Positions 4,822 through 38,986 of a stretch of DNA of 39,305 nucleotides are shown here, piece by piece. The notes under the pieces are model-generated. The model did not search any database. It worked only from the letters and a program-made list of their open reading frames with translations, and was not told the DNA's origin. The DNA is from a virus (taxonomy: Duplodnaviria > Heunggongvirae > Uroviricota > Caudoviricetes). Within the stretch, counting starts at the first letter, position 1. Each line of letters begins with the position of its first letter. A program made the position numbers and the translations under genes. Where the stretch lies: the IMG/VR virus record IMGVR_UViG_2706794689_000009, one strand, 5' to 3'.

Positions 4822-5043
4822 ATGGCGGTATTTAATATTCCTGATATTTACGGACGCTTTTACCTGGTTAATTTCGATAACGTGAAGGTGATTTCACTGG
4901 CCGAAAATAAAGAATGTGGCGATTTACTTTTTGAATTTAATGACCGCACACGAATGGTGATATCTGCCGGACTTGATCGCGAAGGTGCGACAGAAGTTTA
5001 CAGCGGAATATGCCGTTCTGTTGGTGCGAAACAAGTCAGCTAA
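4822..5043 (+). CDS. Small early protein in the Mu kil position (about 74 aa)
   Basis: ORF overlaps the B stop codon; size and position match Mu kil. Call is by position only, no recognisable motif. Confidence 0.45.
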   Translation: MAVFNIPDIYGRFYLVNFDNVKVISLAENKECGDLLFEFNDRTRMVISAGLDREGATEVYSGICRSVGAKQVS

Positions 5044-5310
5044 ATGAGGTGTTATATGAATATGCAATCCTGCGGTAACAAAATGAATTTATTCGACTCC
5101 CTGAACAGCGCGCGCCGTCTGACCGAACTTGCCGGTGCGGTACTGGAACGCAGTAAGCGCTATCCGCAACGTTTTGCACTGAAAACCACGCCGCCGGTAG
5201 GCAACGTGCAGGGAACCGGTGAAATTGAAATCACCATACAGACCAACGGCCTGCGCCGCCGTGTGAAGGCCACCCGCATCAGCGGCTGCACGGTTTACTG
5301 GGAGGTGTGA
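5044..5310 (+). CDS. Hypothetical early-region protein
   Basis: 88-aa ORF on the same strand, contiguous with neighbours; multiple possible ATG starts (5044/5056/5062). Confidence 0.45.
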   Translation: MRCYMNMQSCGNKMNLFDSLNSARRLTELAGAVLERSKRYPQRFALKTTPPVGNVQGTGEIEITIQTNGLRRRVKATRISGCTVYWEV

Positions 5311-5311
5311 G

Positions 5312-5593
5312 GTGAAAAAAAATCTCATTGCATGGGCGTGGTCGAGTGGTCTTATTGAGTTTGGTTACGTCCTGCCGGAAGGTGCATTGCCGATAGTTGC
5401 CGGAAAGCCTGCCACGGTACGGCATGTGATTGAGGTTATGGCGCGTCATGGACGTGATGAACAGGAGCAGTTACTGGTTCCGGGGATACCGGAAGCGGTG
5501 ACGGAGGAAGAAGCCTTTAATGCCATGATTCGGTTCTGCCGTGAGGTTAGACGCCGGGTCAGTTATCCAAACAGAACGAGGACCAGAGGATGA
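5312..5593 (+). CDS. Hypothetical early-region protein (GTG start)
   Basis: 93-aa ORF tightly packed between neighbours; its end overlaps the next start. Confidence 0.4.
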   Translation: MKKNLIAWAWSSGLIEFGYVLPEGALPIVAGKPATVRHVIEVMARHGRDEQEQLLVPGIPEAVTEEEAFNAMIRFCREVRRRVSYPNRTRTRG

Positions 5594-5862
5594 GTAAAGT
5601 CGTACGCATTATTTTCGAATACAAGGAAGATGTTATCTGCAAAAACTCTGATGGCAGCACGCACAGAGGGGTAAGTCTGGATATACGTTCAACCGGAATA
5701 AAGAAGAAAGATAATGGACCCGCCATGATTTTTGGGGTGGTTATGCTGGCAGAAAGCAGAAACTTCGCAGAGTTTGTGGCAATGAAAGCCAGTGCATTCA
5801 TGAAAGACAGAGGCATGGCTTCCGGGGTTATTAACGGTAATGAATTTAATCAACAGGGGTAA
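5590..5862 (+). CDS. Hypothetical early-region protein, tandem paralog copy 1
   Basis: 90 aa, begins MSKVVRIIFEYKEDV. The next gene has a near-identical N-terminus. Confidence 0.55.
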   Translation: MSKVVRIIFEYKEDVICKNSDGSTHRGVSLDIRSTGIKKKDNGPAMIFGVVMLAESRNFAEFVAMKASAFMKDRGMASGVINGNEFNQQG

Positions 5863-5866
5863 TTCC

Positions 5867-6160
5867 ATGAGCAAAGTACGCGTTATTTTTGAATTTAATC
5901 ATGTTTCGCATGACGAAAAGTTGGCAGGCAATGACTGTGTTGAAGTGCATGAAAAGATTGGAGTGGATGTGAAAACAGAACGTGATACGGATAACAGGCC
6001 GACGTCACTCTGTGACGTTTATGCAAGTATTCTCCAGTATCACAGTCCTGCAATTATTCAGTTTCTCTCAGCGGAATTTCAGGCATCTGCACAGTCTTTT
6101 GGAGCGGATGCCATCATTAAACGCCACCGCGTGCATAAAGCATCAGGCACACTGCAATAA
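5867..6160 (+). CDS. Hypothetical early-region protein, tandem paralog copy 2
   Basis: 98 aa from ATG 5867, begins MSKVRVIFEFNHV. Starts 5 nt after the stop of copy 1, with an AGGGG ribosome-binding site. Confidence 0.55.
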   Translation: MSKVRVIFEFNHVSHDEKLAGNDCVEVHEKIGVDVKTERDTDNRPTSLCDVYASILQYHSPAIIQFLSAEFQASAQSFGADAIIKRHRVHKASGTLQ

Positions 6161-9495: not shown

Positions 9496-10018
9496 ATGAA
9501 TCGCGCTTCCCTGATTACCTTAATACATGTCGCAAAACGCGATCTACAGCTTGACCATGATACCTATACATCCGCGCTGCTGGCAGCCACCGGCAAATCC
9601 AGTTGCCGTGATATGTCACCCGGTGAGTTATCCCGCGTGCTGGATGTTTTCAAAAAACGCGGTTTTAAAGTGCGTCAGANNNNNNNNNNNNNNNNNNNNN
9701 NNNNNNNNNNNNNNNNNNNNNNNNNNNNNNNNNNNNNNNNNNNNNNNNNNNNNNNNNNNNNNNNNNNNNNNNNNNNNNNNNNNNNNNNNNNNNNNNNNNN
9801 NNNNNNNNNNNNNNNNNNNNNNNNNNNNNNNNNNNNNNNNNNNNNNNNNNNNNNNNNNNNNNNNNNNNNNNNNNNNNNNNNNNNNNNNNNNNNNNNNNNN
9901 NNNNNNNNNNNNNNNNNNNNNNNNNNNNNNNNTGCTGGCAGCCCTGGATATGTCGGAACGTGCAGTGATGAGTTATGAGCGTGTTTGCAGGCTGTATGAA
10001 AAATCATTCCCCCGTTAA
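9496..10018 (+). CDS. gemA: GemA-like early regulatory protein, interrupted by N-mask 9680-9932
   Basis: N-terminus MNRASLITLIHVAKRDLQLDHDTYTSALL...LSRVLDVFKKRGF fits the Mu gp16/GemA family. A C-terminal piece after the mask ends at 10018. Frame continuity across the mask cannot be verified. Confidence 0.55.
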
Positions 10019-10337: not shown

Positions 10338-10597
10338 NNNNNNNNNNNNNNNNNNNNNNNNNNNNNNNNNNNNNNNNNNNNNNNNNNNNNNNNNNNNNNN
10401 NNNNNNNNNNNNNNNNNNNNNNNNNNNNNNNNNNNNNNNNNNNNNNNNNNNNNNNNNNNNNNNNNNNNNNNNNNNNNNNNNNNNNNNNNNNNNNNNNNNN
10501 NNNNNNNNNNNNNNNNNNNNNNNNNNNNNNNNNNNNNNNNNNNNNNNNNNNNNNNNNNNNNNNNNNNNNNNNNNNNNNNNNNNNNNNNNNNNNNNNN

Positions 10598-31525: not shown

Positions 31526-32076
31526 CCCTGACCCCGCATCAGCGCGCCCTGTTGCAGTTACTGCCTGACGGGCTGGCATGGGACAAGCGTCCGTCATCCG
31601 TACTGGCATCATTATGTCTGGGCCTCAGTCATTCGACAGCGCGTGTATCCTGGACGGGTAAACAGCTGCTTGCCGAGCGTTTCCCTGACACGTCGCGCCT
31701 GCTGCTGGAAGACTGGGAGCGTTATCTCGGGCTTCCCGAGTGTGATATGGCCGGAGCCACCCTCACGGAGCGACAGCGTTATGCCGGAAATAAATACCGG
31801 ATGAAGCCCTCGCTGAACCGTGAATTTTATATCCGGTTTGCGGCGGAGTTTGGTTATCAGATTGACATTCAGCCCTCACCGGATTCGCAGTGGGTCAGTA
31901 TTGTCACGATTAACAGTGAAACCGGCTACCGGAATATGAATGTGCTGGATGATATTCTCACGCCGCTGCGTATTTATGAAGGCGGTGCGCTGGAATGTAT
32001 TCTGAACCGTTATAAGCCTGCATGGCAGACGTTTATTTACGTTTATGCAAACAGCCATGAAGAGGAGACTATTTAA
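31516..32076 (+). CDS. Tail protein (Mu gp48 position)
   Basis: 186 aa between the J-like gene and the fibre gene. Confidence 0.7.
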
Positions 32077-32957
32077 TGTTTCATGTTGATAATAATTCCG
32101 GCGTGGCGAATATGCCTGCGCTGGCACCGGCGCAGAGTAATACCACCACCTGGTTTACCGAAGGTGACGGACAAAAAGGTATCAGCTGGATTGGTCAGGA
32201 CTGGCTGAATATTCTCCAGGCCGAACTGCTGAATATTCTGGCTGAAGCCAGTATTCAGCCGGATAAGGCGCAGTTAAACCAGCTTACGCTGTCCATTAAA
32301 GCCATTATCGCTGCGAATGCCTTTTCCCGGAAAAATAACCTGAAAGAAATTGCTGATGCCGGTGCGGAGGCCCAGCGTCTGGCCCGTGGTTATCTTGGTC
32401 TGGGGACGCTTGCCACAAAAAACAGTCTTGGTCCCGCTGACGTTAATGCCCTGGCGAAGGATCAGAATCTCGCCGACCTGGAGAATAAGGGAACCGCCCG
32501 TAATAATCTGGATGTTTACAGCAAAAGCGAAGGTGATAACCGTTACCTGCGCAGGGAGCAGAACGGCGCAGACATTCCGGATAAAGGGGCTTTTATCGAT
32601 AACGTCGGTTTACGGGAAACGGTAAACAGGGCGGCGAATGCCCTGCCATCGGACGGCACCGCCGTTGCCGCGAACAGGCTGGCAAATGCCCACACAATTA
32701 ATGGTGTTCCCTTTGACGGGACGCAGGATATCACTATCTCATCAGGAACAGTAACCGCCATAAGACTGGGGTCGGTGACCGCACATATGCCCGGAACATG
32801 GGAAAGCTGGGATCTGAATCTGGGGGGCGGCAATGTTCTTACCGGAATTAAAGTACAGGATGTCGGTAAGAATACGGCAGATAACGTCGGCGGCGTGTAT
32901 TACCGGCCGTTGCAGTATCTGTTAAATGGAGCATGGGTGACGGCTGCAAGTATATAA
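32076..32957 (+). CDS. Tail fibre protein S: constant part up to about 32698, then current-orientation variable C-terminus
   Basis: 293 aa. The crossover motif [12 protein letters not shown] at residues 208-218 coincides with a 30-bp inverted repeat. Confidence 0.75.
32699..32728 (+). repeat. gix-like inversion crossover site, left copy
   Basis: TAATGGTGTTCCCTTTGACGGGACGCAGGA; its reverse complement occurs at 33811-33840 with one mismatch. Confidence 0.65.
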
Positions 32958-32988
32958 TGATATTCAGAAGGCCTTCCGGCCTTCTTTA

Positions 32989-33471
32989 TTACTGTGGCTG
33001 CTCAGGCCATTTAATGGCGTTAAATTCAGCTTCTGTTTTAATGGCGGGTAGTTCCATTTTCTTCACCTGACTGATGTATGCCATCCATTGGGTAAGTGCT
33101 GCTCTGTCTTCATCGCTGATGGTGCCCAGTTGTAGCTCCGTTCTCCAGTCATTAATTTTTTCATATGCCTGATTAAGATATGACTGGCGCATTGCTTCCA
33201 GTTTTCTTGCGTAGTTAACCGGAATACGGGAGATTATGCCATTATCAAACTTCCAGTTTCCTGAAATATCCGTGCCTTCAGGGAGTTCATCGACCTCAAC
33301 CACAGAAAACCCCGCAGGATACAGCGCCGAGGCGTCCTGTGATATTGAGCAGATAACGCCGCTGTCAGGTGTTATGCAAAGTTTATATTTTTTGGTGAAT
33401 AATGGCAGGGATTCGTAGAAATCCTTACCATCTTCACTCTGGAAATACTGAACATTATTACCATATGGCAT
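32989..33471 (-). CDS. Tail fibre assembly protein (U'-like), inside the invertible segment
   Basis: 160 aa, minus strand. The conserved C-terminal motif ISDEDRAALTQWMAYISQVKKMELPAI...KWPEQPQ is typical of tail fibre assembly chaperones. Confidence 0.75.
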   Translation of the reverse strand: MPYGNNVQYFQSEDGKDFYESLPLFTKKYKLCITPDSGVICSISQDASALYPAGFSVVEVDELPEGTDISGNWKFDNGIISRIPVNYARKLEAMRQSYLNQAYEKINDWRTELQLGTISDEDRAALTQWMAYISQVKKMELPAIKTEAEFNAIKWPEQPQ

Positions 33472-33736
33472 ATNNNNNNNNNNNNNNNNNNNNNNNNNNN
33501 NNNNNNNNNNNNNNNNNNNNNNNNNNNNNNNNNNNNNNNNNNNNNNNNNNNNNNNNNNNNNNNNNNNNNNNNNNNNNNNNNNNNNNNNNNNNNNNNNNNN
33601 NNNNNNNNNNNNNNNNNNNNNNNNNNNNNNNNNNNNNNNNNNNNNNNNNNNNNNNNNNNNNNNNNNNNNNNNNNNNNNNNNNNNNNNNNNNNNNNNNNNN
33701 NNNNNNNNNNNNNNNNNNNNNNNNNNNNNNNNNNNN

Positions 33737-33840
33737 CTGCTCCCAGCCTGATATCCTGGATATATCGGGAATCCGCATCCTGCTGTGTTATACCAGAAGT
33801 GATGTTTATGTCCTGCGTCCCGTCAAAGGGAACCCCATTA
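33737..33840 (-). CDS. Alternative tail fibre variable segment (Sv'-like), fragment visible between N-masks
   Basis: Minus-strand translation [34 protein letters not shown] starts at the right crossover repeat and shares [11 protein letters not shown] with S. Confidence 0.5.
33811..33840 (-). repeat. gix-like inversion crossover site, right copy (may extend into the N-mask)
   Basis: Reverse complement of 32699-32728 with one mismatch. Confidence 0.65.
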
Positions 33841-34090
33841 NNNNNNNNNNNNNNNNNNNNNNNNNNNNNNNNNNNNNNNNNNNNNNNNNNNNNNNNNNNN
33901 NNNNNNNNNNNNNNNNNNNNNNNNNNNNNNNNNNNNNNNNNNNNNNNNNNNNNNNNNNNNNNNNNNNNNNNNNNNNNNNNNNNNNNNNNNNNNNNNNNNN
34001 NNNNNNNNNNNNNNNNNNNNNNNNNNNNNNNNNNNNNNNNNNNNNNNNNNNNNNNNNNNNNNNNNNNNNNNNNNNNNNNNNNNNNNNNNN

Positions 34091-34620
34091 CGGCGCTACA
34101 AAGAAATGCGCTGGAATGTGCAGGATGTGAGCTGTTTTTCGAAGACAGAATAAGCGGTAAGACAAGGGAGCGTCCCGGACTTAAACGCGCATTAAAGCGA
34201 CTCCGGCCAGGGGATACCCTGCTGGTCTGGAAACTGGATCGCCTTGGACGCAGTATGCAGCACCTTGTCCTTTTAACAGAAGAACTCCGGCAACGCGGCG
34301 TTAACTTCCGCAGCATTACGGACAATATTGATACATCCACTCCCATGGGACGTTTCTTTTTCCATATAATGGGCGCGCTGGCGGAAATGGAGCGGGAACT
34401 CATTATTGAACGTACACGCGCGGGTCTTGCTGCTGCCCGTGCTCAGGGGCGTCATGGCGGCAGACCTCAGAAACTGACAGAGAAAGAGCGGGAGCAAATC
34501 GCCCGTTTGCTGGCTAATGGCGAGTCCCGTAAACAAATCGCACTGATATTTGATATTGGCCTTTCCACCCTTTATCGTTATTTTCCTGCCTCACCAGCTC
34601 CGTCACCAAAAGTACCGTGA
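34091..34620 (+). CDS. gin: Serine recombinase DNA invertase (Gin/Hin/Cin/Pin family); 5' end inside N-mask
   Basis: Visible translation LQRNALECAGCE...DRPGLKRALKRL..GDTLLVWKLDRLGRSM.HL...ELRQRGVNFRSITDNIDTSTPMGRFFFHIMGALAEMERELIIERT..GLAAARAQGR.GGRP is near co-linear with Mu Gin. The catalytic serine region is masked. Confidence 0.9.
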
Positions 34621-34705: not shown

Positions 34706-36760
34706 ATGTCAGACTCCAAGTGGAAAATGCTCTCCGCCATGCCCGGAGAGTTTTCAGTCAAGGTTGCCGGTGGCACGGTGGCATTTATTGAAAGCCCTTT
34801 CCGCCCTTCGGGTAATAAAGGGGGGATCACCTTCGCAGACTGCGTGATCCGCTTCAGCACGAAAGAGCCATTATGGGTAATGCCGGTATCCGGTAATCCC
34901 AGTGCAGAAATCACCAGTTCAGGCGTGACTGGCATCATTCCAATCACATCTGACGTGGCCGGAACGCTCACGCCCTCCGACTGGAATGCACCGGATAACG
35001 CCGGGCCTTCCGGTAGCACGAATGGCAGCAGTTCAGAGCCGGAATATTACTTTGTTGTCATTCTCGCGGGTCAGTCAAATGGCATGGCCTACGGCGAGGG
35101 GCTGCCGTTACCGGATTCGTTTGACCGCCCGGACCCACGCATTAAGCAACTGGCACGCCGCAGTACGGTAACGCCCAACGGTACGTCGTGTACATACAAC
35201 GACATCATTCCGGCAGACCACTGCCTGCATGATGTTCAGGATATGAGCGGGATAAACCACCCGAAAGCTGATCTGGCAAAAGGCCAGTACGGGACTGTCG
35301 GTCAGGGGTTGCATATTGCCAAAAAACTGCTTCCCTATATCCCACAGAATGCCGGGATACTTCTGGTGCCCTGTTGTCGTGGCGGGTCAGCATTCACCAC
35401 TGGAGCCGACGGCTCATTCAGTGAGGCCAGCGGTGCTTCCGCTGATTCTTCACGCTGGGGGGCCGGTAAACCTCTGTATCAGGACCTGGTAAGCCGCACC
35501 AAAGTCGCGCTGGCGAAAAACCCGAAAAACAAACTTCTGGCTGTGGTCTGGATGCAGGGAGAGGCAGACCTTGCCTCAGGAAGCCAGCAGCATAATAGTT
35601 TATTCACGGCCATGGTTCAGCAGTTCAGAACTGACCTGGCTCCGCTTGCTGCGCAGTGCGTGAGTGGAAATGCCACCACGGTGCCGTGGATTTGCGGTGA
35701 TACCACGTATTACTGGAAAAACGCTGGCACCGATAAATATGAGGCAGTATACGGTGGCTACAAAGGCAAGGAAGCACAGAAAATTTTCTTTGTACCGTTC
35801 CTGACGGATGAGAATGGACAGAGCACGCCAACGAATGCTCCGGCGGAAGACCCGGATATTGTGGCTGTCGGGTATTACGGTGCAGCATCCCGAACCCAGG
35901 GCAGTTTTGTTTCGACACAGCGTGACAGCCATTTCAGCTCATGGGCACGCAGGGGCGTCATTTCAGACCGTCTGGCCTCAGCTATTATGCTCCATGCAGG
36001 GCGCACGGCTGAACTGATGCGTGGGCAGACCGTGACACCACCGGATGAGAAGCCGTCACCTGATACACCATCAAAACCGTCCACGCCACCCGCAGACACC
36101 ACGACGATGAGTACGCTATTTGCTTACCGGGCATCTGAGTCTGAAGGACGGTTGACACCACAGGGTTGGGCTGCCGGAGGTGGCAAGGCTCAAATCGTGG
36201 ATGATGCCGGAGCCAGCGGGGGTAAGGCAATGAAACTGACCAAGGAAACAGGAAGAGCCCCCTGGTACCTTGAGCATGATGCTGGTAATGGTGCGGACCT
36301 GCTGGGTAAAGGTGGTCTTGTCAGTTGTCGTTTTAAACTCGATGGCGCGCTTACGGCTAATCAGTACGCACTGGCGCTGTACTGGCCGGTTTCTGCCCTG
36401 CCGCAAGGGGTTACTCTGGAAGGAAATGCCGGTCATAACCTGCTGGCATCGTTCTACGTACAGAGCGATGCCACAGACCTTAACGTGATGTATCACAAAG
36501 GAAACACGGCGCAGAACACGAAGCTGGGGTCATTCGGCGCATTTAATAACGAATGGCATACGCTGGGCTTCCGTTTTGCCGGTAACAACAGTATTGAGGT
36601 GACGCCGGTCATTGATGGTAAGGACGGGACACCATTCATGCTGTCGCAGTCTCCGGTCGGCACGTTTACGGCAGACAAGTTGCGCGTGACCGATATCACT
36701 AAAAATGCGACTTACCCGGTACTGATTGACAGTATCGTGGTGGAAGTGAATAACGCGTAA
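34706..36760 (+). CDS. Putative SGNH/SASA-family esterase (sialate O-acetylesterase-like) with Pro/Thr/Ser linker and C-terminal beta-rich domain
   Basis: 684 aa. Motif VVILAGQSNGMAYGEG (GQSN block of the SASA/SGNH fold), linker PPDEKPSPDTPSKPSTPPADTTT, then a roughly 220-aa C-terminal domain. Not part of the Mu backbone. Confidence 0.55.
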   Translation: MSDSKWKMLSAMPGEFSVKVAGGTVAFIESPFRPSGNKGGITFADCVIRFSTKEPLWVMPVSGNPSAEITSSGVTGIIPITSDVAGTLTPSDWNAPDNAGPSGSTNGSSSEPEYYFVVILAGQSNGMAYGEGLPLPDSFDRPDPRIKQLARRSTVTPNGTSCTYNDIIPADHCLHDVQDMSGINHPKADLAKGQYGTVGQGLHIAKKLLPYIPQNAGILLVPCCRGGSAFTTGADGSFSEASGASADSSRWGAGKPLYQDLVSRTKVALAKNPKNKLLAVVWMQGEADLASGSQQHNSLFTAMVQQFRTDLAPLAAQCVSGNATTVPWICGDTTYYWKNAGTDKYEAVYGGYKGKEAQKIFFVPFLTDENGQSTPTNAPAEDPDIVAVGYYGAASRTQGSFVSTQRDSHFSSWARRGVISDRLASAIMLHAGRTAELMRGQTVTPPDEKPSPDTPSKPSTPPADTTTMSTLFAYRASESEGRLTPQGWAAGGGKAQIVDDAGASGGKAMKLTKETGRAPWYLEHDAGNGADLLGKGGLVSCRFKLDGALTANQYALALYWPVSALPQGVTLEGNAGHNLLASFYVQSDATDLNVMYHKGNTAQNTKLGSFGAFNNEWHTLGFRFAGNNSIEVTPVIDGKDGTPFMLSQSPVGTFTADKLRVTDITKNATYPVLIDSIVVEVNNA

Positions 36761-38047: not shown

Positions 38048-38094
38048 GATTGAGTGATAAAGATATCAACAACAAAGCAGGAGGTTATGCGGCC

Positions 38095-38295
38095 ATGTAT
38101 CGAAACATACGGTGCCGACATTGTAACAAGCTACTGGCACGAGCCAGCTTCAGTTATCTGGAAGTTAAATGTCCGCGCTGTAAAACCCTCAATCAAATCA
38201 CATCTCAGAGCGCCACAGAGCACCCCACATACACAAGGAAATCCTGTCGTGGGGAACAGAAAGCAAGTTACATCCCGTATCATCAGCACGCCTGA
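38095..38295 (+). CDS. com: Com zinc-finger translational activator of mom
   Basis: From ATG 38095 (AGGAGG 10 nt upstream): [35 protein letters not shown]...EHPT, co-linear with Mu Com including the CxxC-(16)-CxxC zinc finger. Confidence 0.8.
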
Positions 38296-38986
38296 ACTTA
38301 TTCACTATAACGACAATATCGTCGGTTATGGCTCCCGTGAGTTACGGGTTGAGACAATAAGTTGCTGGCTGGCCCGGCTGGTCGTCGTCAATAAACATTA
38401 CAGCCATCGTTTCGTAAATAATTCCTACCTTCATCTGGGCATATTTTCAGAACGGGAGCTGGTTGGCGTAATGCAATGGGGTTATGCCCTTAATCCAAAC
38501 AATGGTGCACGCGTCGTAACTGGCACGCAGAACCGCGAATATATGGAGCTTAACCGGTTATGGCTGCATGACTGTATGCCGAGAAACTCCGAATCAAGGG
38601 CAATCAGTTACGCGCTCAAACTAATCAGACAACTTTATCCGCAGGTGCAGTGGGTTCAGTCGTTTGCAGATGAGCGTTGTGGCTGTCTTGGTGTCGTGTA
38701 CCAGGCAAGCAATTTTGATTATGTAGGCAGTCATGAAACAACATTCTATGAACTTGATGGCGAGTGGTATCACGAGATTTGCAAGAATGCAATCAAACGA
38801 GGAGGACAGCGAGGTGAACATCTGCGGGCTAATATCGACAGAGCCAGTGTTCATAAATTCCGTCAGTTTCGTTACATCCGGTTTCTGGACAAGAGAGCCA
38901 GAAAACGCCTTAACACAAAGCTATTCAAAGTCCAGCCTTACCCAAAACCACAAACAGTTAAAACTGGTTTGAAAGAGAGTGAATGA
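38249..38986 (+). CDS. mom: Mom-like DNA modification protein (start inferred as GTG 38249)
   Basis: Long frame overlapping the 3' end of com as in Mu; about 245 aa from GTG 38249. An AAGGAA ribosome-binding site and the GTG lie inside a stem CCCCAC...GTGGGG (about 38223-38254), resembling the Mu mom translation-inhibition structure that Com opens. No sequence-level identification of Mom was possible. Confidence 0.6.

Follow-up and report, generated by a model that had tools for sequence, protein, structure and literature searches.

Organisation of the locus

Judged by its gene content, the window analysed here, a stretch of viral DNA of 39,305 nt taken at its full length, is a complete Mu-like, Sp18-type transposable prophage of E. 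coli. A domain search places Mu-type genes along it in Mu order (Mu-transpos_C, HTH_Tnp_Mu_1, Phage-MuB_C, Portal_Mu, DNA_circ_N, Baseplate_J, Phage_Mu_Gp48 and Mom), sheath, gp43, gp47, gp48, MuA and MuB are also present, and gp47 and gp48 are followed by the tail fibre gene S, the same synteny as in Mu. The region from S to the end of the adjacent invertase gene contains the following features, listed by window coordinates unless stated otherwise.

32076-32957, + strand: S in its present fused form (Sc plus Sv), 293 aa; open reading frame, PDB match to Mu S, synteny
32076-32604, + strand: Sc, the 5' part of S that stays constant (about 177 codons) and is not in the invertible segment; the same in L001/L135 and in L003
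32593-32618: left gix-type site, TTATCGATAACG TC GGTTTACGGGAA, inside S; central dinucleotide at 32605-32606
32605-32746: left arm of a 142-bp imperfect inverted repeat, within the segment; codes for a stretch of about 47 aa, with an 11-residue motif, that hardly differs between the two fibres
32747-32957, + strand: unique Sv tip, about 69 aa and stop; matches to known fibre tips
32966-32985, + strand: G+C-rich hairpin, then TTATTACTGT, between the convergent Sv and tfa stops (L001 4467-4486)
32989-33473, - strand: tfa, 160 of 173 codons visible; matches to PF02413 and Mu U
33474-33736: mask 1, 263 N
33737-33840, - strand: middle portion of the alternative tip S'v, left unmasked; 33793-33840 forms the inner end of the right repeat arm
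33841-34090: mask 2, 250 N
L001 5411-5436 (in the window under mask 2): right gix site, TTCCCGTAAACC GA GGTTTTCAGGAA
34091-34133: visible part of a probable Fis-dependent recombinational enhancer (invertase nt 19-86), by homology to the P7 cin enhancer span
34091-34620, + strand: serine DNA invertase gene, unmasked from nt 44 up to its stop codon; Resolvase and HTH_7 domains

Residues 1-198 of S match Mu S (PDB 5yvq_A, E 9e-46), and tfa matches both the Caudo_TAP family (PF02413, E 5e-19) and Mu U (PDB 5yvq_B, E 4e-16). The invertase, whose first 43 nt are masked in the window, has a Resolvase domain (PF00239, E 2e-51) followed by HTH_7 (PF02796, E 5e-15). In relatives it is 190 aa long and is 72% identical to Gin, 73% to Cin and 80% to an O157 prophage invertase, in agreement with the first-pass annotation, which had proposed an invertible fibre segment beside a Gin-family invertase. 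The span annotated as enhancer in P7 cin here shows 81% identity with Mu gin and 78% with P7 cin, compared with 59% and 50%, respectively, over the next 34 nt, and Mu gin also has the two G-N13-C 15-mers found at invertase nt 22 and 71. An enhancer and Fis dependence are therefore probable, the conservation on which they rest lying in a region that is also coding.

Masked sequence and near-identical relatives

The masks cover, as had been pointed out, most of the alternative part of the segment and the start of the invertase gene. The query is covered to at least 80% by 16 complete genomes, of which seven are 99.8-100% identical to it; the relatives fetched (L001-L003 and L135) are 99.9-100% identical to the window outside the masks. 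At the position of mask 1 identical relatives have 252 nt, versus 263 N in the window, comprising tfa codons 1-13, a 51-nt AT-rich spacer, the S'v stop and the last 55 or so S'v codons; at the position of mask 2 they have 214 nt, versus 250 N, comprising the right gix site together with the outermost 93 nt of the right repeat arm, 65 nt of intergenic DNA and the first 43 nt of the invertase gene. The right site and the starts of the invertase and tfa genes in the window are very probably those of these near-identical relatives. In the relatives the segment is about 1.32 kb long and contains the Sv tip, one antisense tfa of 173 aa (full gene L001 4490-5011, 173 codons) and the S'v tip, after which the invertase follows. 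A full-size G segment beneath the masks is ruled out, as the four fetched relatives have only the 252 and 214 nt there and no extra genes.

Crossover sites lie outside the obvious repeat

The 30-mer at 32699-32728 and the reverse complement of that at 33811-33840 are identical at 29 of 30 positions, and a repeat finder lengthens the pair to 48 nt at 83% identity (32699-32746 and 33793-33840), the chance expectation for such repeat pairs being about 2e-9 in 6.5 kb. The first-pass annotation had taken these 30-mers to bracket a segment of about 1.1 kb. The repeats are real, but they are not the segment ends: they form the inner part of a 142-nt imperfect inverted repeat with arms 84.5% identical (120/142, L001), and the crossover points are two 26-bp gix-type sites situated about 105 bp outside them on each side. 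As the sites are further out than the 30-mers, the segment measures about 1.32 kb and not 1.1 kb. It can still be called compact, as it had been, but its compactness is ordinary, since the segments adjoining close relatives of this invertase are mostly 1.3-2.1 kb long.

The left site is the only match in the window to TTN5AAACCNNGGTTTN5AA when up to two mismatches are allowed, and is identical to Mu gixL at 22 of 26 positions. The right site, in full TTCCCGTAAACCGAGGTTTTCAGGAA, is positioned about 65 bp upstream of the invertase ATG and is identical to gixL at 21 of 26; the inner sequence adjoining both sites is also common to Mu. The central dinucleotides, TC in the left site and GA in the right, match, and the two sites are in inverted orientation, the right one as seen in relatives. 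Exactly two gix-like sites are present in 9.45 kb of unmasked relative, versus 0.03 expected, which rules out extra crossover sites or a Min-like system there.

The segment inverts and exchanges the fibre tip

When the FORC_029 locus is flipped in silico at the central dinucleotides it becomes the NCCP 13983 locus (L003), with 0 mismatches over 9,454 bp; without flipping there are 819 mismatches, all within the segment. Comparison of L001/L135 with L003 maps the crossover to a 19-bp interval beginning at the central TC, polymorphisms internal to the repeat moving with the segment while the outer half-sites remain fixed. Among the 30 complete E. coli genomes with a match to one of the two junctions over at least 80%, the Sc-Sv junction is present in 24 and the Sc-S'v junction in 6, and some single genomes hold two copies in opposite states. 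Comparison between assembled genomes, in which both orientations occur, thus establishes that the DNA between the sites inverts, and the fusion of S to an alternative C-terminus, predicted earlier for the opposite orientation, is seen directly in NCCP 13983.

The two fusion products, S (293 aa) and S' (296 aa), have residues 1-177 in common and differ past the crossover, both continuing in frame with Sc. The C-terminus of S is indeed variable, but the exchanged part is 116 aa rather than the 73 aa first given, and consists of about 47 aa from the repeat, nearly the same in both orientations, and about 69 aa that are unique. A Pfam search of S and S' matched no family, and homology was instead taken from the PDB search and tblastn; a search of genome contigs with profiles of the Sc alignment, in which the patterns were too strict, returned one locus (L011, Pantoea) and was left out. 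The Sv tip is 45-52% identical to the tips of P2-like H, P1-like S and SfMu S', and matches the phiTE short fibre (9cuy_c, E 1.6e-9). The S'v tip matches the Mu S tip (i-E 1e-4) and is 42-47% identical to P2-like and L-413C H tips. The window-type Sv tip is without the D.RY...LG start found in Mu and S'v tips. Between alleles, dN/dS of the Sv tip is 0.04-0.10 (0.09-0.10 at pS 0.36, 0.04 at pS 0.74), and the tip is under strong purifying selection. The hairpin 3' of Sv is terminator-like on the + strand and may act as such.

We consider it highly probable that the locus is an active Gin/Cin/Pin-type inversion switch exchanging the tail fibre tip of a Mu-like, Sp18-type prophage. In the mechanism we propose, the 190-aa serine invertase would pair the two inverted gix-type sites, one inside S and the other upstream of its own gene, probably with the aid of Fis bound at the enhancer in the 5' end of that gene, as homology suggests. 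It would cut at the matching central TC/GA, rotate and religate the ends, so that about 1.32 kb is flipped. Late transcription entering from Sc would in one state read Sv, giving the 293-aa fibre, and then the hairpin; in the flipped state it would read S'v, giving the 296-aa fibre, and then the single tfa. Both tips are modules of about 70 aa of the Mu S/P2 H/P1 S type, joined to Sc via the 47-aa linker that the 142-bp internal inverted repeat encodes.

As a switch this is textbook biology, and it is of practical use mainly for annotation. In this prophage family, what is annotated as an 'incomplete phage tail protein' pseudogene and as the 'hypothetical protein' S is a single phase-variable gene in its two states, and the true crossover sites are well outside the most obvious repeat.

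One tfa gene and two alternative tips

The odd feature of the locus is its single predicted fibre-assembly chaperone gene, tfa, for two alternative tips. No second tfa homologue occurs anywhere in the 39-kb window. The segment has no mirror symmetry, and only the S' orientation puts tfa downstream of a tip; in the window orientation no tfa is found downstream of S on the + strand, the sole copy being on the - strand from 32989. The asymmetric content, and the absence of a same-strand assembly chaperone after S in the present orientation, had both been recognised in the first-pass annotation. Its further proposal, that the flip would bring in a dedicated chaperone, is borne out in that the only tfa is then downstream on the same strand (L003), but not as to dedication, as tfa alleles combine freely with tips.

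Mu, SfMu, P7, the EPEC locus and most of the compact segments surveyed have two tfa genes each. The layout with one is kept across diverged alleles in every Sp18-type locus examined, i.e. six from complete genomes (L001, L003, L005-L007 and L135) and about two dozen from IMG/VR; Sc and the repeat region are common to about 230 of 5,426 complete E. coli genomes. In the IMG/VR survey four further loci (L027, L038, L082 and L089) are not counted as single-chaperone, because the iterative tfa HMM misses short tfa-N-like ORFs of 80-90 aa. Having only one tfa is a real feature of the whole family, and an unusual one for tips of these types.

Assembly of the Sv fibre

Whether tips of the Mu/P2 type need a cognate Tfa that is co-transcribed with them is a question for which this layout provides a natural experiment, and one that bears on the engineering of phage and tailocin host range by tip swapping. 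Tentatively, we favour the reading that one Tfa serves both tips and that its gene is transcribed on its own from the AT-rich spacer that precedes it. In this prophage family tip and tfa are 51, 79 or 120 nt apart, compared with 0-17 nt in Mu, SfMu, P1-like and P2-like phages, POP15 and the non-invertible relatives L128-L132, and each spacer type contains a sigma-70-like match ending 20-35 nt before the ATG. These matches are weak (8/12) and such matches arise easily in AT-rich DNA, a default promoter scan returned no minus-strand promoter for tfa, and a tfa transcript would run head-on into the late transcription of S.

A shared Tfa would also fit the variants that are locked in the Sv state by deletion of S'v and the invertase (L004 and L008, fetched from complete genomes, and the seven IMG/VR loci L108 and L112-L117), as all nine have an intact 173-aa tfa, with a dN/dS of 0.13 between L004 and L008. 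These variants are suggestive only, because they probably descend from one deletion and because recombination with invertible relatives can import conserved sequence and could by itself give the low dN/dS. Finally, different tips pair with the same tfa alleles. Three alleles had hinted at linkage of tfa to Sv, but in a wider sample the tfa, Sv and S'v modules are freely reshuffled, tfa alleles occurring with several different tips, and co-variation of tfa with either tip therefore allows no conclusion.

The same switch could instead carry a tfa for S' only, the Sv fibre folding without Tfa or borrowing the Tfa of another prophage; this is possible, and in our view only a little less probable, and would make the switch a toggle between Tfa-assisted, possibly Tfa-capped, and Tfa-free fibres. 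In the Sv orientation tfa is antisense to the late operon and the terminator-like hairpin follows Sv, the scans give no convincing tfa promoter, and the missing D.RY...LG start sets the window-type Sv tip apart from the Mu and S'v tips. The tfa alleles look promiscuous, so that a foreign Tfa could plausibly serve; gp38-bypass mutants are known in T4, as is cross-complementation among the Tfa proteins of lambda, P2, T4 and Mu. However, the closest outside relatives of Sv (SfMu S', P1-like S, P2-like H and the POP15 fibre) have a same-strand tfa 0-6 nt downstream, and tfa is intact throughout the permanently Sv-locked variants, in which a chaperone dedicated to S' would be useless. Nor would a Tfa for S' only account for the unusual spacer before its gene.

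With somewhat less than even confidence, we suggest that either the chaperone is uncoupled from the switch, one Tfa with its own promoter serving both tips, or the switch alternates Tfa-assisted or Tfa-capped with Tfa-free fibres. The latter would add a second layer of host-range control, because in Mu the Tfa remains attached to the tip of the fibre (PMC9608196) and has a part in host binding. Either outcome, if true, would mean that Tfa-tip pairing in fibres of the Mu/P2/P1 type is much looser than the layout of one tip and one chaperone suggests.

It is improbable that the Sv orientation is non-productive, i.e. that an ancestral U was deleted, leaving particles without functional fibres and a decaying remnant of a symmetric G-like segment. 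The segment does have one chaperone fewer than Mu, P1, e14 and most compact segments, and degenerate derivatives without S'v and most of the invertase exist. But a decaying state is difficult to reconcile with the strong purifying selection on the Sv tip, the conservation of the one-tfa layout among diverged alleles, the Sv orientation of most genomes that match either junction (24/30), and the report that Sp18 is intact and efficiently packaged (PMC2669165). Least credible is that the repeats are a recurring fibre motif (Phage_fiber_2-like) with no programmed inversion, or that the masks hide Min-like extra sites: although the repeat, where visible, codes for a common fibre motif and the related loci L057 and L069 hold several tips, this reading is already refuted by near-isogenic genomes that differ by an exact inversion at the gix-type sites, and by unmasked relatives with two sites only and no room under the masks for further tips, unless the window differs there from relatives otherwise 99.9-100% identical to it.

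Comparison with other inversion systems

The closest classical counterpart is the Mu G segment with Gin, where the genes follow one another as they do here (gp46, gp47, gp48, S, segment, invertase). Identity between Sc and its Mu counterpart is 49% and the fusion occurs near the same codon (177 here, about 170 in Mu), the sites have the same central dinucleotide and inner flank as gixL, Tfa is homologous to U and U', and the extreme tips belong to one type with those of Mu S and S'. The G segment is larger, at 3.06 kb, and carries U plus U', matching the earlier description of about 3 kb with a chaperone for both orientations. Its exchanged parts are about 320-335 aa long, compared with 116-120 aa here, the gap before the chaperone gene is 2 nt rather than 51 nt, and the internal inverted repeat is 34 bp rather than 142 bp. 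The present prophage also has extra cargo (SASA/DUF6645, DUF1378, DUF826) between the invertase and mom.

Sp18-type prophages of O157 have the identical layout of S, antisense tfa, S'v, invertase and DUF6645, with Sc and the repeat in common at about 89-91% nucleotide identity. They differ in their alleles, with identities of 46% in the Sv tip, 35% in the S'v tip, 61% in tfa and 80% in the invertase; locus L006 is a candidate for Sp18 itself. The host-specificity region of Sp18 from E. coli O157:H7 Sakai was described in 2009 as invertible, distinct from Mu and 'atypical', and Sp18 as intact, with DNA that is efficiently packaged (PMC2669165).

The C segment of P1/P7 with Cin, to which the present invertase is 73% identical, likewise has 26-bp sites of the cix/gix type, and its internal inverted repeats also have the crossover points at their outer ends. 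Its enhancer is within the 5' part of the recombinase gene, where one is probable here too. It differs in its length of about 4 kb, in the placement of cin on the other side, with cixL overlapping the cin 3' end, and in having chaperones for both orientations (U'; Ua/Ub in P7).

The P segment of e14 has two convergent tfa genes in mirror symmetry. It (with PinE) and the Mu-like segment of EPEC E2348/69 resemble the present one as compact fibre segments of 1.8-1.9 kb (EPEC, 1.9 kb), both in E. coli prophages and downstream of a YmfQ/gp48 gene. The EPEC segment is unlike it in having two convergent tfa genes in mirror symmetry and no adjacent invertase. Both segments were shown experimentally to flip (PMC4272514).

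Multiple-inversion systems such as Min of p15B use the same recombinase family and site type, but the two crossover sites here allow two states only. The related IMG/VR loci L057 and L069 combine their several tips with one tfa.

Organisation of the switch locus

Pfam matches place Mu-order genes in the window (MuA, MuB, Portal_Mu, sheath, DNA-circularisation protein, Baseplate_J, Mu gp48 and Mom), and reading its tail-fibre region as an invertible switch, proposed in the first-pass annotation, is supported once the segment boundaries are corrected. The relevant features are:

32076-32957, plus strand: tail-fibre gene S, 293 aa
32593-32618, inside S: left 26-bp site, TTATCGATAACG TC GGTTTACGGGAA, at the outer end of the inverted repeat
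from 32989, minus strand: Caudo_TAP tail-fibre assembly gene (tfa)
about 33737-33840, minus strand: fragment of a second fibre C-terminus
ending at 34620: resolvase-family gene
9680-9932, 10338-10597, 33474-33736 (mask 1) and 33841-34090 (mask 2): four N runs of 250-263 nt, the latter two within the switch region
5411-5436 of L001, beneath mask 2: right 26-bp site, TTCCCGTAAACC GA GGTTTTCAGGAA, at the outer end of the repeat

Megablast against complete E. coli genomes finds 16 that cover the switch region, seven at 99.8-100% identity, and comparison with such relatives restores the masked sequence. The unmasked locus L001 (NZ_AP022815) is 99.88%, 100% and 99.95% identical to the window outside the masks. 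Where the window has N runs of 263 and 250 nt, relatives that match it at 99.9-100% outside the masks have 252 and 214 nt, so that mask length is not faithful, coordinates are not preserved, and distances across masks 1 and 2 are wrong by 11 and 36 nt. In L001, S is followed by a minus-strand tfa encoding 173 aa, which an AT-rich spacer of 51 nt separates from a minus-strand fragment of 125 codons encoding the alternative tip S'v (labelled an incomplete tail protein by PGAP); then, after 65 nt of intergenic sequence, comes the gene for an invertase of 190 aa.

The segment inverts

The predicted opposite orientation, with an alternative C-terminus and a same-strand tfa, is seen in NCCP 13983 (L003), where the same prophage has its segment reversed and an identical Tfa is encoded downstream of S' (296 aa) on its strand. 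L003 is near-isogenic with FORC_029 (L135), and flipping in silico the stretch of L135 that lies exactly between the central dinucleotides of its sites yields the L003 sequence with no mismatch in 9,454 bp; uninverted, they differ at 819 positions, all within L003 4125-5405. This places the crossover within a 19-bp interval starting at the central TC. Polymorphisms within the repeat move with the segment and the outer half-sites stay fixed in place. When both orientations were sought among complete genomes, junctions of the constant part Sc with the window's tip, Sv, were found in 24 and Sc-S'v junctions in 6, some strains carrying two copies in opposite states. This kind of switch is well known and the family is already in the literature. 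Mu-like fibre inversions are included among the programmed inversions of Milman et al. 2023.

Crossover sites and invertase

The two 30-mers taken initially as the segment ends do form an inverted repeat (29/30 identical; about 2e-9 such pairs expected by chance), but they are not its ends. A repeat finder lengthens the match in the window to 48 nt at 83%, and in L001 the repeat runs further outward, to 142 nt in total at 84.5% identity, with the crossover sites at its outer ends, the arrangement described as general for larger imperfect repeats in the EC958 genome paper (PMC4134206). The sites are 22/26 (left) and 21/26 (right) identical to Mu gixL, and the inner sequence next to them, ACGGTAAACAGGGC, is common to Mu. 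The search for further sites, proposed earlier for the masked parts, finds none in the unmasked relative: the gix/cix-type pattern matches exactly these two in its 9.45 kb, with 0.03 expected, and the left site is its sole match in the window. These positions give a segment of about 1.32 kb and an Sc of about 177 codons, compared with about 170 in Mu. Each exchanged part is 116-120 aa long, of which about 47 aa are repeat-encoded and nearly alike in both states, followed by a unique tip of about 70 aa.

The adjoining enzyme is, as first described, of the Gin family: it has Resolvase and HTH_7 domains and shares 72% of its residues with Gin, 73% with Cin and 80% with the enzyme of the O157 prophage. 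The DNA corresponding to the enhancer annotated for P7 cin shows 78-81% identity to Mu and P7 (50-59% in the next 34 nt) and holds two G-N13-C 15-mers at the positions they occupy in Mu gin, from which Fis-enhancer dependence is inferred to be likely. Separately, an invertase 71% identical to the window's is found in the P2-like Erwinia phage ENT90 (L012, 900-2470), adjoining a very small, poorly annotated region that may be another very compact fibre switch; in it a 157-aa ORF labelled 'tail fiber protein' is opposed by one of 115 aa.

A compact segment with one chaperone gene

We surveyed 80 IMG/VR loci whose invertases are 74-100% identical to that of the window, sizing segments in 55 of them and in four references (L001, the O157-type locus L006, Mu and SfMu) that had a pair of sites, one of them no more than 250 nt upstream of the invertase. 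Most span 1.3-2.1 kb, so the compactness first singled out is not unusual; it is the Mu (3.06 kb) and P1/P7 (4 kb) segments that are large. The e14 P segment (1.84 kb) and an EPEC Mu-like segment (1.92 kb) have been shown to flip in culture (PMC4272514).

The asymmetry, in contrast, stands, and is moderately unusual. As first noted, S in its present orientation has no tfa 3' of it on the plus strand, and the 39-kb window contains no tfa homologue besides the minus-strand gene. Compact segments mostly have two convergent tfa genes abutting their tips, and mirror-image content has been described in the EC958 genome paper (PMC4134206). The one-tfa layout is common to the whole Sp18-type group, whether of the window type, of the O157 type or recombinant between the two. 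Our literature search found no explicit account of it; Asadulghani et al. scored the host-specificity function of Sp18 as atypical and found its DNA efficiently packaged (PMC2669165). What is mildly new is this conserved one-chaperone architecture, which poses a clean, testable question on Tfa dependence.

Other layouts were also seen. In segments of about 1.7-2.1 kb beside related invertases, IMG/VR loci L057 (14-1728) and L069 (99-2181) combine just one tfa with three or four alternative tips that close with ...AIGY/AIGF. The layout suggests that multiple inversion of the Min type operates with one chaperone in a different phage lineage. Four compact loci (L027, L038, L082, L089) have a normal tfa after one tip and after the other a short 80-90-aa ORF (MRLFNP...NGEPVLIDVT) resembling a lone Tfa N-terminal domain.

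Assembly of the Sv tip

S residues 1-198 match Mu S (5yvq_A, E 9e-46) and tfa matches Mu U (5yvq_B, E 4e-16). By homology both tips are versions of a widespread module, the Mu S / P2 H / P1 S type. Identity is 45-52% between Sv and the tips of P2-like H, a P1-like S and SfMu S', and 42-47% between S'v and H tips from P2-like phages and L-413C; weak but consistent alignments to the C-terminal extremities of Mu S and S' agree with this. Relative to the Mu G segment, each variable part is without the middle 200-220 or so residues and there is one chaperone gene fewer. Each of the closest outside relatives of Sv is followed after 0-6 nt, on its own strand, by a tfa that belongs to it.

We tentatively favour a single Tfa that serves both tips via its own transcription. 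The spacer before tfa is 51-120 nt long and AT-rich only in the Sp18-type family (0-17 nt elsewhere), and every spacer type contains, 20-35 nt ahead of the tfa ATG, a sequence weakly resembling a sigma-70 promoter. Tfa alleles occur with several different tips, indicating loose pairing. Finally, tfa is intact (173 aa) in all nine variants in which a recurrent deletion has locked the Sv state:

L004 (NZ_CP010183), 5011-5316: Sv-locked deletion derivative
L008 (NZ_AP022811), 5595-5900: Sv-locked deletion derivative
IMG/VR L108 and L112-L117: Sv-locked deletion derivatives

Between L004 and L008 the dN/dS of tfa is 0.13. The deletion runs from within the S'v C-terminus to around invertase codon 169, leaving tfa antisense. 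Its identical junction is shared by loci with two kinds of Sv tip, indicating spread by recombination, which could also explain the intact tfa. A promoter scan found no strong promoter for tfa, which counts against a shared Tfa and in favour of a nearly as likely alternative, that Sv folds without Tfa or borrows one in trans. That the Sv state is defective is very improbable, as strong purifying selection on the tip (dN/dS 0.09-0.10 and 0.04 between alleles) argues that it is no dead end.

The S'v tip, tfa and Sv tip are three modules reshuffled independently (L109-L111 and L127 compared with L001, L005 and L006): a Mu-S-like S'v, for example, accompanies a window-like tfa and an O157-type Sv in one combination and an O157-type tfa in another.

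Genes downstream of the invertase

Directly 3' of the invertase (34706-36760, plus strand) lies a gene for a 684-aa protein with an SGNH domain of sialate O-acetylesterase type (SASA, E 1.5e-13) and a C-terminal DUF6645. The gene may encode an esterase that is associated with the tail and modifies receptors, or else act in lysogenic conversion. After it come DUF1378 and DUF826 genes, and this cargo, kept in all Sp18-type relatives, stands where Mu has com/mom. Mom comes only at 38054-38986 (plus strand), as a 310-aa protein whose Mom domain (residues 96-298) is preceded by an N-terminal extension of about 95 residues.
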